From the sequence record PP925847.1: DNA of 44,738 nucleotides, one strand, 5' to 3'. Position 1 is the first letter of the stretch. Each line of letters starts with the position of its first letter. A program made the translations under genes and the position numbers. Positions 10,545 through 11,221 of the stretch are shown in pieces. Under the pieces are notes generated by a model. It searched no databases. It was not told the DNA's origin and saw only the letters and a program-made list of their open reading frames with translations. Source of the stretch: Escherichia phage Zumzum.

Positions 10545-11221
10545 TTATGCGGGGTTCTGCCGCGCCATTTCATCCAGCGCAACGCGTTCCATTAGCTTGA
10601 TATCTTTAAACGCACGTTGCGCGTTTTCGATGCCGTGCATCTTAAATAACCACTCCAGCACGCCGTAGTCGATGCCGTATGCGCCACCAAAACCGGTGCG
10701 CCATTGCGTGGAGCAATCTGTGAAGACTGCGACTACCTTCGCGTTGTCGGGCCATAGCGCAACAGGCGGACAAACATCTTCGGGGGCCGCACCCCATAAA
10801 CTTGCGGCTAAATCTTCGGAGGGTGGCGGCGGGCCATAAAAGCGTCGCGCCGCCTCAATTAGTTTTTTTCACGCAACCCCATCAGTTCGAGATAGTACGA
10901 CGTGTGGAACACGCCGAACGCGCGCGGATAGTTGACCACCAGGCGGCGGACGTTCTCCGCGTTAAATTCGTCCGGCAGATTCCAGCCTTCTGCGACGTGC
11001 ATGATGGCCTCGACCATAACGTTAAAGCCGTCAGGATCATTGTCGTCATATTCCGACAACTTGCGCTCAGTATCCTGCATGGTCTGCGAAAATTCGTCGA
11101 TCGGGCGGTGGCGCACGGTAAACGTCATTTTTCCCGGTTCGTTTTCACCGGGGCGCGGGATCTCAATCGGCAGCTTAAAGGTCGGCTTAGGGTCAAGTGT
11201 GAAGAGTGGTGCTTTTGCCAT
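10545..11221 (-). CDS. tail assembly chaperone GT-like fusion made by programmed -1 frameshift at A_AAA_AAC (10862-10868)
   Basis: Slippery heptamer sits immediately before the G stop (TAA 10859-10861); the -1 frame then stays open for 105 codons (LIEAARRFYG...DEMARQNPA) to TAA at 10545-10547. Confidence 0.65.
10859..11221 (-). CDS. tail assembly chaperone, G-like (about 120 aa from ATG at 11221)
   Basis: Small acidic protein between major tail and tape measure genes; ATG at 11219-11221 has a GGAGA ribosome-binding site; ends ...GLREKN with a slippery heptamer at its stop. Confidence 0.7.
   Translation of the reverse strand: MAKAPLFTLDPKPTFKLPIEIPRPGENEPGKMTFTVRHRPIDEFSQTMQDTERKLSEYDDNDPDGFNVMVEAIMHVAEGWNLPDEFNAENVRRLVVNYPRAFGVFHTSYYLELMGLREKN

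Follow-up and report, generated by a model that had tools for sequence, protein, structure and literature searches.

Evidence for a probable programmed −1 ribosomal frameshift of the G/GT type joining two tail assembly chaperone frames in the Dhillonvirus Escherichia phage Zumzum

The window analysed here is a 44,738-nt stretch of Escherichia phage Zumzum (PP925847.1), a Dhillonvirus (HK578-like coliphage), and the locus in question is a pair of overlapping reading frames between the tail tube and tape measure genes, namely a short tail assembly chaperone gene (G) and an open −1 frame (T) that is most probably reached by programmed −1 ribosomal frameshifting to give a GT fusion. The relevant genes all lie on the minus strand (Table 1). 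At the shift site this strand reads ...ATG GGG TTG CGT GAA AAA AAC TAA TTG AGG CGG..., with the codons of the G frame falling, by counting, at GAA 10870–10868, AAA 10867–10865, AAC 10864–10862 and TAA 10861–10859, and the register of the heptamer is X_XXY_YYZ in this upstream frame. An initial annotation, made from the sequence alone, had the upstream gene ending CGU GAA AAA AAC UAA with the heptamer (10862–10868) directly on the stop, which proved exact to the base. Translation of G from the ATG at 11221, which is preceded by GGAG, gives 120 amino acids with the C-terminus ...LMGLREKN, and every Dhillonvirus record examined lists the same 363-nt coding sequence (CDS). Reading T from CTA (10862–10860) gives 105 residues followed by TAA (10547–10545), identical to the 105 residues proposed in that annotation. 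In the T frame no start-like codon (ATG, GTG or TTG) precedes the GTG at codon 68 and no ATG precedes that at codon 75, and two thirds of the T open reading frame (ORF) is unreachable by initiation. The lack of a start codon before codon 68 is the reason that an ORF finder misses the extension, again as had been surmised. The G and T frames are jointly open for 10 nt only (the heptamer and the stop), the open T frame of the window beginning at the first base of the heptamer. As this 10-nt overlap is closed at its 5′ side by TGA, a shift that joins the two frames is possible on the A_AAA_AAC heptamer only.

Table 1. Features of the G/GT locus of phage Zumzum and of its immediate neighbours (window coordinates).
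Feature	Coordinates	Strand	Remarks
Gene G, tail assembly (tape-measure) chaperone	11221–10859	minus	120 aa, 363-nt CDS; ATG 11221, TAA 10861–10859; Pfam Phage_TAC_4
Slippery heptamer A_AAA_AAC (X_XXY_YYZ)	10868–10862	minus	Read from sequence; abuts the 0-frame stop of G
TGA in −1 frame	10871–10869	minus	Immediately 5′ of the heptamer; shuts the −1 frame upstream
T extension, −1 frame	10862–10545	minus	105 codons + TAA 10547–10545; Pfam DUF1799; no start codon of its own
GT fusion	complement(join(10862..11221,10545..10862))	minus	225 aa (conceptual)
Candidate stimulatory hairpin	10854–10825	minus	GGCGGCG (10854–10848) pairs with CGCCGCC (10831–10825); starts 7 nt after the heptamer
Tail tube (major tail) protein gene, upstream neighbour	12016–11291	minus	Pfam Phage_tail_3, E 1.3e-32
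Tape measure protein gene, downstream neighbour	10160–7518	minus	880 aa; Pfam TMP_2, E 1.7e-43; Tape_meas_lam_C, 4.6e-14

Both frames belong to described protein families. G matches Pfam PF08748 Phage_TAC_4 (‘phage tail assembly chaperone’) with 83.9 bits against a cut-off of 21.1 (E 1.4e-23), the alignment extending over G residues 1–120 and profile positions 1–124 of 124. The −1 translation of T matches PF08809 DUF1799 with 75.7 bits (cut-off 26, E 3.3e-21) over profile positions 1–80 of 80, as well as phrog_680 (E 6.6e-31). The fused GT sequence matches phrog_17368 end to end (positions 1–212 of 213), which indicates that fused versions are already among the deposited phage proteins. A search of a large protein database with the 225-aa fused query returned three matches only, none covering both halves, and is uninformative on natural fusions; two of these three pointed to new lineages. 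A sequence search of the PDB gave no relevant match. The gene order is tail terminator (Phage_tail_terminator_5), tail tube, G, T and tape measure, and the G/T pair sits between the tube and tape measure genes, the canonical place of lambda G and T. The initial annotation had likened the locus to the conserved G/GT frameshift of long-tailed phages, and the likeness holds in position, in the start-less overlapping −1 ORF and in the in-register heptamer.

The T frame also bears the mark of a translated sequence. The region is 94–96% identical to many Dhillonviruses, with 158 phage records matching the 1.2-kb region, 154 of them over at least 80% of the query. Codon-position counts come from an alignment of the window with four loci from GenBank and 15 from IMG/VR, all 20 Dhillonvirus sequences being distinct, and those for T use the 17 sequences without indels. 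Variable sites at codon positions 1/2/3 number 10/6/77 for G in the G frame and 18/9/64 for T in the −1 frame (chi-square p = 3e-13), and the same bias is seen over the first 67 T codons, i.e. the start-less part (9/3/40, p = 1.3e-10). The gap downstream of T exhibits no periodicity (58/50/51) and many indels. Third-position substitutions switch from the G frame to the −1 frame at the heptamer. Synonymous and non-synonymous codon differences, summed over all sequence pairs, stand at 2325:638 in the −1 frame, whereas reading the other two frames gives 281:2685 and 256:2751. Judged from these substitutions, purifying selection acts on T as a protein, its start-less part included. A downstream frame not conserved as protein in homologues had been named as a possible refutation of the initial annotation; the frame is protein-like and conserved, as indicated by the synonymous excess and the DUF1799 match.

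These data bear directly on the explanation that the arrangement is an artefact or a dead gene, i.e. that a homopolymer sequencing error has split a single ORF, or that the −1 ORF is an unexpressed, decaying remnant. Some sequencing platforms do make errors in homopolymers, and the stretch is unannotated or cut into small ORFs in most deposited genomes. Set against this are the recurrence of the same frame arrangement in 154 phage records (at least 80% coverage) and in metagenomic contigs, about 50 of them independent, a part of which carry a non-homopolymer heptamer, the strong purifying selection on the −1 frame, which contradicts a dN/dS near 1 for T, and the failure to find a version with eight A in IMG/VR. 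We regard an artefact or a dead gene as extremely improbable.

T homologues are present in 792 phage records. The shift site was followed in a first scan of 48 full-length loci that encode a T homologue, comprising the window itself, four loci from GenBank and 43 of 45 IMG/VR loci, with a weak partial match, L049, excluded. An in-register heptamer directly before the G stop is present in 48/48 of these loci. The heptamer is A_AAA_AAC in the Dhillonviruses (89–100% T identity), where it is invariant in 20 loci, and likewise in a second lineage (T identity ∼41–44%), and it is G_GGA_AAC in a third lineage at ∼36–40% T identity, the same level as the T matches in T1-like Drexlerviridae. Three further lineages, represented by five loci on four contigs, carry A_AAA_AAC followed by UGA or UAA, with T starting LIEAA. 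The first of these (L059) has a G that is 58% identical; the second (L061) is GC-rich and adjoins a tube protein of a different family (Phage_tube_2); and the third (L062 and L063) is AT-rich, with a G that has no detectable similarity. In all lineages the C-terminal residue of G is N and the first residue of T is L, and in every lineage examined the position of the 0-frame stop after the heptamer is invariant (UAA or UGA), with either heptamer. Across these loci the slippery site is conserved as a pattern, beyond mere sequence. Matches in IMG/VR to a pattern with six A were considered as variants of the site and were rejected, since they proved to be another lineage in which the same A_AAA_AAC is preceded by G instead of A. 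At the nucleotide level the shift site and the first T codons are the most conserved part of the module, and an exact 22-nt identity with the window over the shift site (GAAAAAACTAATTGAGGCGGCG) is found at 10634–10655 of L062 and at 8307–8328 of L063, two IMG/VR contigs with differing flanks.

The exchange of one canonical heptamer for another at a fixed position fits ribosomal slippage and is predicted neither by polymerase stuttering nor by a start codon. Transcriptional slippage has to be considered here, whereby RNA polymerase would stutter on the run of seven A (10869–10863) and an extra A would yield the same fusion with the junction ...REKK-LIEAAR. Documented bacterial transcriptional slippage sites are longer than A7, usually nine or more. 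The homopolymer of seven A is indeed at the site, one added A joins T to G and yields the very peptide that the initial annotation predicted, and bacteria and insertion sequence elements are known to undergo such slippage on runs of A (PMC5009743). The site of the T1-like lineage, G_GGA_AAC, has three A only and cannot stutter, yet keeps X_XXY_YYZ, and a search of IMG/VR for A8 variants of the site found no natural in-frame example. Transcriptional slippage is a very improbable source of the fusion as a whole, and it may add a minor share at the A7 run.

The heptamer pattern has to be set against its chance occurrence. In-frame XXXYYYZ heptamers number 54 in the 26,010 ORF codons of the window, or about 1 per 480 codons, and the expected chance of one landing in the only register that a 10-nt overlap offers is well below 1%. 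Seven further sites in the window are picked up by a mechanical scan for such heptamers followed by a long −1 extension, which means that the pattern alone is not specific and that the case rests on homology and conservation. Other heptamers flagged by the scan lie at 39540–39549 (+), 41541–41547 (−), 44048–44054 (−), 24765–24771 (−), 18076–18082 (−) and 15707–15713 (+); their −1 frames are open for 70–390 codons past the stop, and they are probably for the most part ordinary gene overlaps or spurious ORFs.

We place the probability that the locus encodes two tail assembly chaperones of a Dhillonvirus siphophage through a programmed −1 ribosomal frameshift of the G/GT type at about 0.9. The features that this estimate draws on are directly observed, namely the heptamer and its register, the start-less open −1 frame, selection at the protein level, conservation of the site and the two Pfam memberships; from them we infer the occurrence and rate of slippage, the junction residue and the chaperone functions. 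Most ribosomes would translate G (120 aa) and terminate at UAA, whereas a small fraction would slip back by one nucleotide on A_AAA_AAC, with tRNA-Lys re-pairing from AAA to AAA and tRNA-Asn from AAC to AAA. The slipped ribosomes would bypass the stop, read CUA next and continue for 105 codons to give the 225-aa GT, for which tandem slippage predicts the junction ...GLREKN-LIEAARR...; predicted T-frame peptides of GT include NLIEAAR and FYGPPPPSEDLAASLWGAAPEDVCPPVALWPDNAK. The junction given in the initial annotation, REKK-LIEAAR, stands in its LIEAAR part but not in its final K, as classical tandem slippage decodes AAC first and leads to REKN-LIEAAR. A K would arise only if the P-site tRNA slipped before AAC was decoded, or if the mRNA carried an extra A, and the junction residue of GT is probably N rather than K. 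On the lambda model, the G part shared by the two products would coat the tape measure protein and the T part (DUF1799) would recruit the tail tube protein, and neither G nor GT would stay in the virion.

The low intrinsic efficiency of the heptamer in E. coli would set a high ratio of G to GT, and a downstream GC-rich hairpin and the adjacent stop may tune the rate of the shift. In E. coli, A_AAA_AAC in the absence of stimulators gives frameshifting above 0.1%, and both heptamers, A_AAA_AAC as well as G_GGA_AAC, are low-efficiency yet naturally used −1 sites, e.g. in IS1 (PMC4066793); A_AAA_AAG is much shiftier than A_AAA_AAC, and lambda needs a G:GT ratio of roughly 30:1 (PMC5009743). Heptamers of low rate are consistent with the high G:GT ratio that a G/GT system needs.

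The hairpin that begins 7 nt downstream of the heptamer has a free energy of −17.1 kcal/mol (z −2.15 relative to shuffles), and its window ranks 1–4 in stability out of 590 windows of 40 nt over G and T in three Dhillonviruses. Third positions are variable at 2/13 codons over the hairpin versus 62/92 in the remaining T (Fisher p = 5e-4), and in L059 the stem is retained despite a C-to-U change that converts a G–C into a U–G pair. The whole 99 nt downstream, when folded, is no more stable than shuffles (z +0.32), and only the local hairpin stands out. An Rfam search (E ≤ 1) over 10100–11300 gave sub-threshold noise and no known frameshift element. Stimulated bacterial −1 signals of the dnaX, IS911 or IS3 type have a stem-loop or pseudoknot 5–9 nt past the heptamer and a Shine-Dalgarno-like element about 10–14 nt before it. 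As for such an upstream element, there is only a weak GGGG at 10880–10877, the last base of which varies among relatives (GGA, GGC). A role of this GC hairpin as a stimulator is plausible but not established. The invariant adjacency of the stop may aid the shift through pausing, or may merely reflect a fixed C-terminus of G. A bolder proposal, which we hold to be rather unlikely, is that the adjacent 0-frame stop is a functional part of the signal, in that slow termination would leave tRNA-Asn on AAC in the P site and allow a ‘shifty-stop’ slip onto AAA. If this were true, the Phage_TAC_4/DUF1799 module would form a subclass of its own among G/GT signals, dependent on the stop and based on heptamers that otherwise shift poorly in E. 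coli.

Several observations weigh against programmed ribosomal frameshifting at this locus. RNAalifold, with the heptamer as anchor, gave no common structure for 25 sequences drawn from three lineages, and a family-wide conserved stimulator is accordingly not claimed; the 3′ arm of the hairpin is absent in L062; and no covariation is available, the stem being otherwise invariant in close relatives. In hhalign the alignments of G and T reached probabilities of 0.1% and 0.7% against their lambda counterparts, i.e. no similarity, so that the functional analogy with lambda gpG/gpT rests on position and organisation. The G/GT class is conserved in organisation rather than in sequence, and a lack of homology to lambda is normal. 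Further points are that A_AAA_AAC shifts poorly in E. coli unless stimulated (PMC5009743, PMC4066793) and, more weakly, that the only Dhillonvirus proteomics found, on an EE09 lysate (PMC10673088), detected G (2 peptides) and reported nothing from the T region. The database of that study held the T region as small ORF calls only, one of which (38 aa) is in the T frame, and lacked GT, for which reason the study could not have detected the fusion.

The last such point comes from existing annotation, as the RefSeq record of HK578 (gp16) and the GenBank record of SO-1 (gp16) carry a separate 315-nt CDS that begins on the last base of the G stop. This corresponds to T as a gene in its own right, expressed by independent initiation or by termination-reinitiation at an ATT that overlaps the stop of G (TAATTG), and AUU starts do exist in E. 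coli, e.g. in IS911 (cited in PMC4066793). The ATT is, however, preceded by no Shine-Dalgarno motif within 15 nt, relatives carry the non-start codons ATA, ATC, AGA or AGG in its place while retaining the heptamer and the stop, and the fused architecture matches a single PHROG profile end to end. Conservation falls on the slippery pattern and not on a start codon, and a separately initiated T is highly improbable on these grounds.

The −1 frameshift of lambda G/GT (Levin, Hendrix & Casjens 1993; Xu, Hendrix & Duda 2004, 2013, 2014, as summarised in PMC5009743) is the obvious system for comparison. In both phages two overlapping ORFs of similar size (140 + 144 aa in lambda, 120 + 105 aa in Zumzum) lie between the major tail and tape measure genes, the second is start-less and in the −1 frame, and an X_XXY_YYZ heptanucleotide lies near the 3′ end of G. 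The heptamer is G_GGA_AAG in lambda but A_AAA_AAC in Zumzum, and the stop follows five codons after the heptamer in lambda, whereas it follows directly in Zumzum. Furthermore, lambda T overlaps H, whereas Zumzum T and the tape measure gene are 385 nt apart with a repeat-rich gap between them, and the Zumzum pair differs in its Pfam families (Phage_TAC_4/DUF1799) and is not a member of the lambda sequence families.

By sequence comparison, the Zumzum G/T pair has its true homologues among the T1-like phages (Drexlerviridae), in their tape-measure chaperones, e.g. CPT_LL5_44/45 of the Tlsvirus LL5. The G and T proteins of these phages are homologous to those of Zumzum, T being ∼34–38% identical. 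The frame relation is the same, the shift site has the same position before the stop, G ends in N and T starts with L, and the LL5 record gives the homologous pair as a ‘frameshift product’ joined from two pieces. Differences are the heptamer, G_GGA_AAC, as read in the metagenomic lineage at that T identity (∼37%) and not in the LL5 sequence itself, the lack of a long gap before the tape measure gene in LL5, and a downstream hairpin that is not positionally conserved in the T1-like lineage. The insA-insB′ site of IS1 resembles that of Zumzum in its A_AAA_AAC heptamer, in translation by the same host, in its low efficiency and in the small amount of fusion wanted (PMC4066793); it differs in that the protein is an unrelated transposase and in that the IS1 site has no established stimulator (PMC4066793).

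The frameshift phenomenon and its use by this gene family are already known, and the present result changes no concept in phage biology or recoding. Its value lies mainly in annotation, since the join completes the tail-assembly gene set of Dhillonvirus and would assign DUF1799 a role as a T-type domain that recruits the tail tube. The GT join is annotated in 0/10 Dhillonvirus records (JLBYU60, EE09, UDS3lw, SECphi18, SO-1, HK578, EK99P-1, McMelon, Opt212 and CS16), in which T is missing, cut into ORFs of 31–76 aa that in part use a wrong frame or strand, or annotated from an ATT start. G is labelled ‘major tail protein’ in the RefSeq record of SECphi18, ‘tail length tape measure protein’ in HK578, EK99P-1 and McMelon, and ‘hypothetical protein’ elsewhere. 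The PHROG families 569, 680 and 17368 are likewise labelled ‘tail length tape measure protein’, and the Pfam name for the T domain is still DUF1799. A search of the available literature found no paper linking Dhillonvirus or HK578 to a G/GT frameshift.

Among the matching records, some assigned to Campylobacter phages (e.g. MG065648.1, ‘Campylobacter phage A144’) are ∼95% identical to this E. coli Dhillonvirus region, and 21 ‘Campylobacter’ records contain T homologues; single Acinetobacter and Salmonella records also match the region. Such host labels look doubtful, and contamination or mislabelling may be the cause.

Upstream of G, a strong hairpin resembling an intrinsic terminator (GGGGCCAGTACGGCCCC followed by TTTTTT) lies at 11244–11260 (−) between the tail tube gene and G and is annotated as a terminator in the CS16 record. 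A terminator at this position would cut transcription of G/GT and the tape measure gene relative to that of the abundant tube protein. Downstream, the 385-nt non-coding gap from the T stop to the tape measure ATG (10161–10544, −) contains six exact copies of GCGGGACA and two 42-nt direct repeats 79 nt apart, each with the palindrome CGGGACGTCCCG followed by TTTT, as well as TGCATAAA-like motifs. The SO-1 record designates the gap as repeat ‘region A’, and that of HK578 places a rho-independent terminator at the start of the gap, which could be a terminator combined with a promoter or an array of regulator-binding sites, or an origin. A second cluster of six exact GCGGGACA copies on the same strand is located at 27168–27269 (−), beside a TGCATAAA motif and between the ORFs 27430–29694 and 26570–26896, and is probably the ‘region B’ mentioned in the SO-1 record. 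The window contains 16 copies of GCGGGACA in total versus 2.2 expected, and the two clusters suggest the site of a phage-specific DNA-binding protein that is used at two loci.

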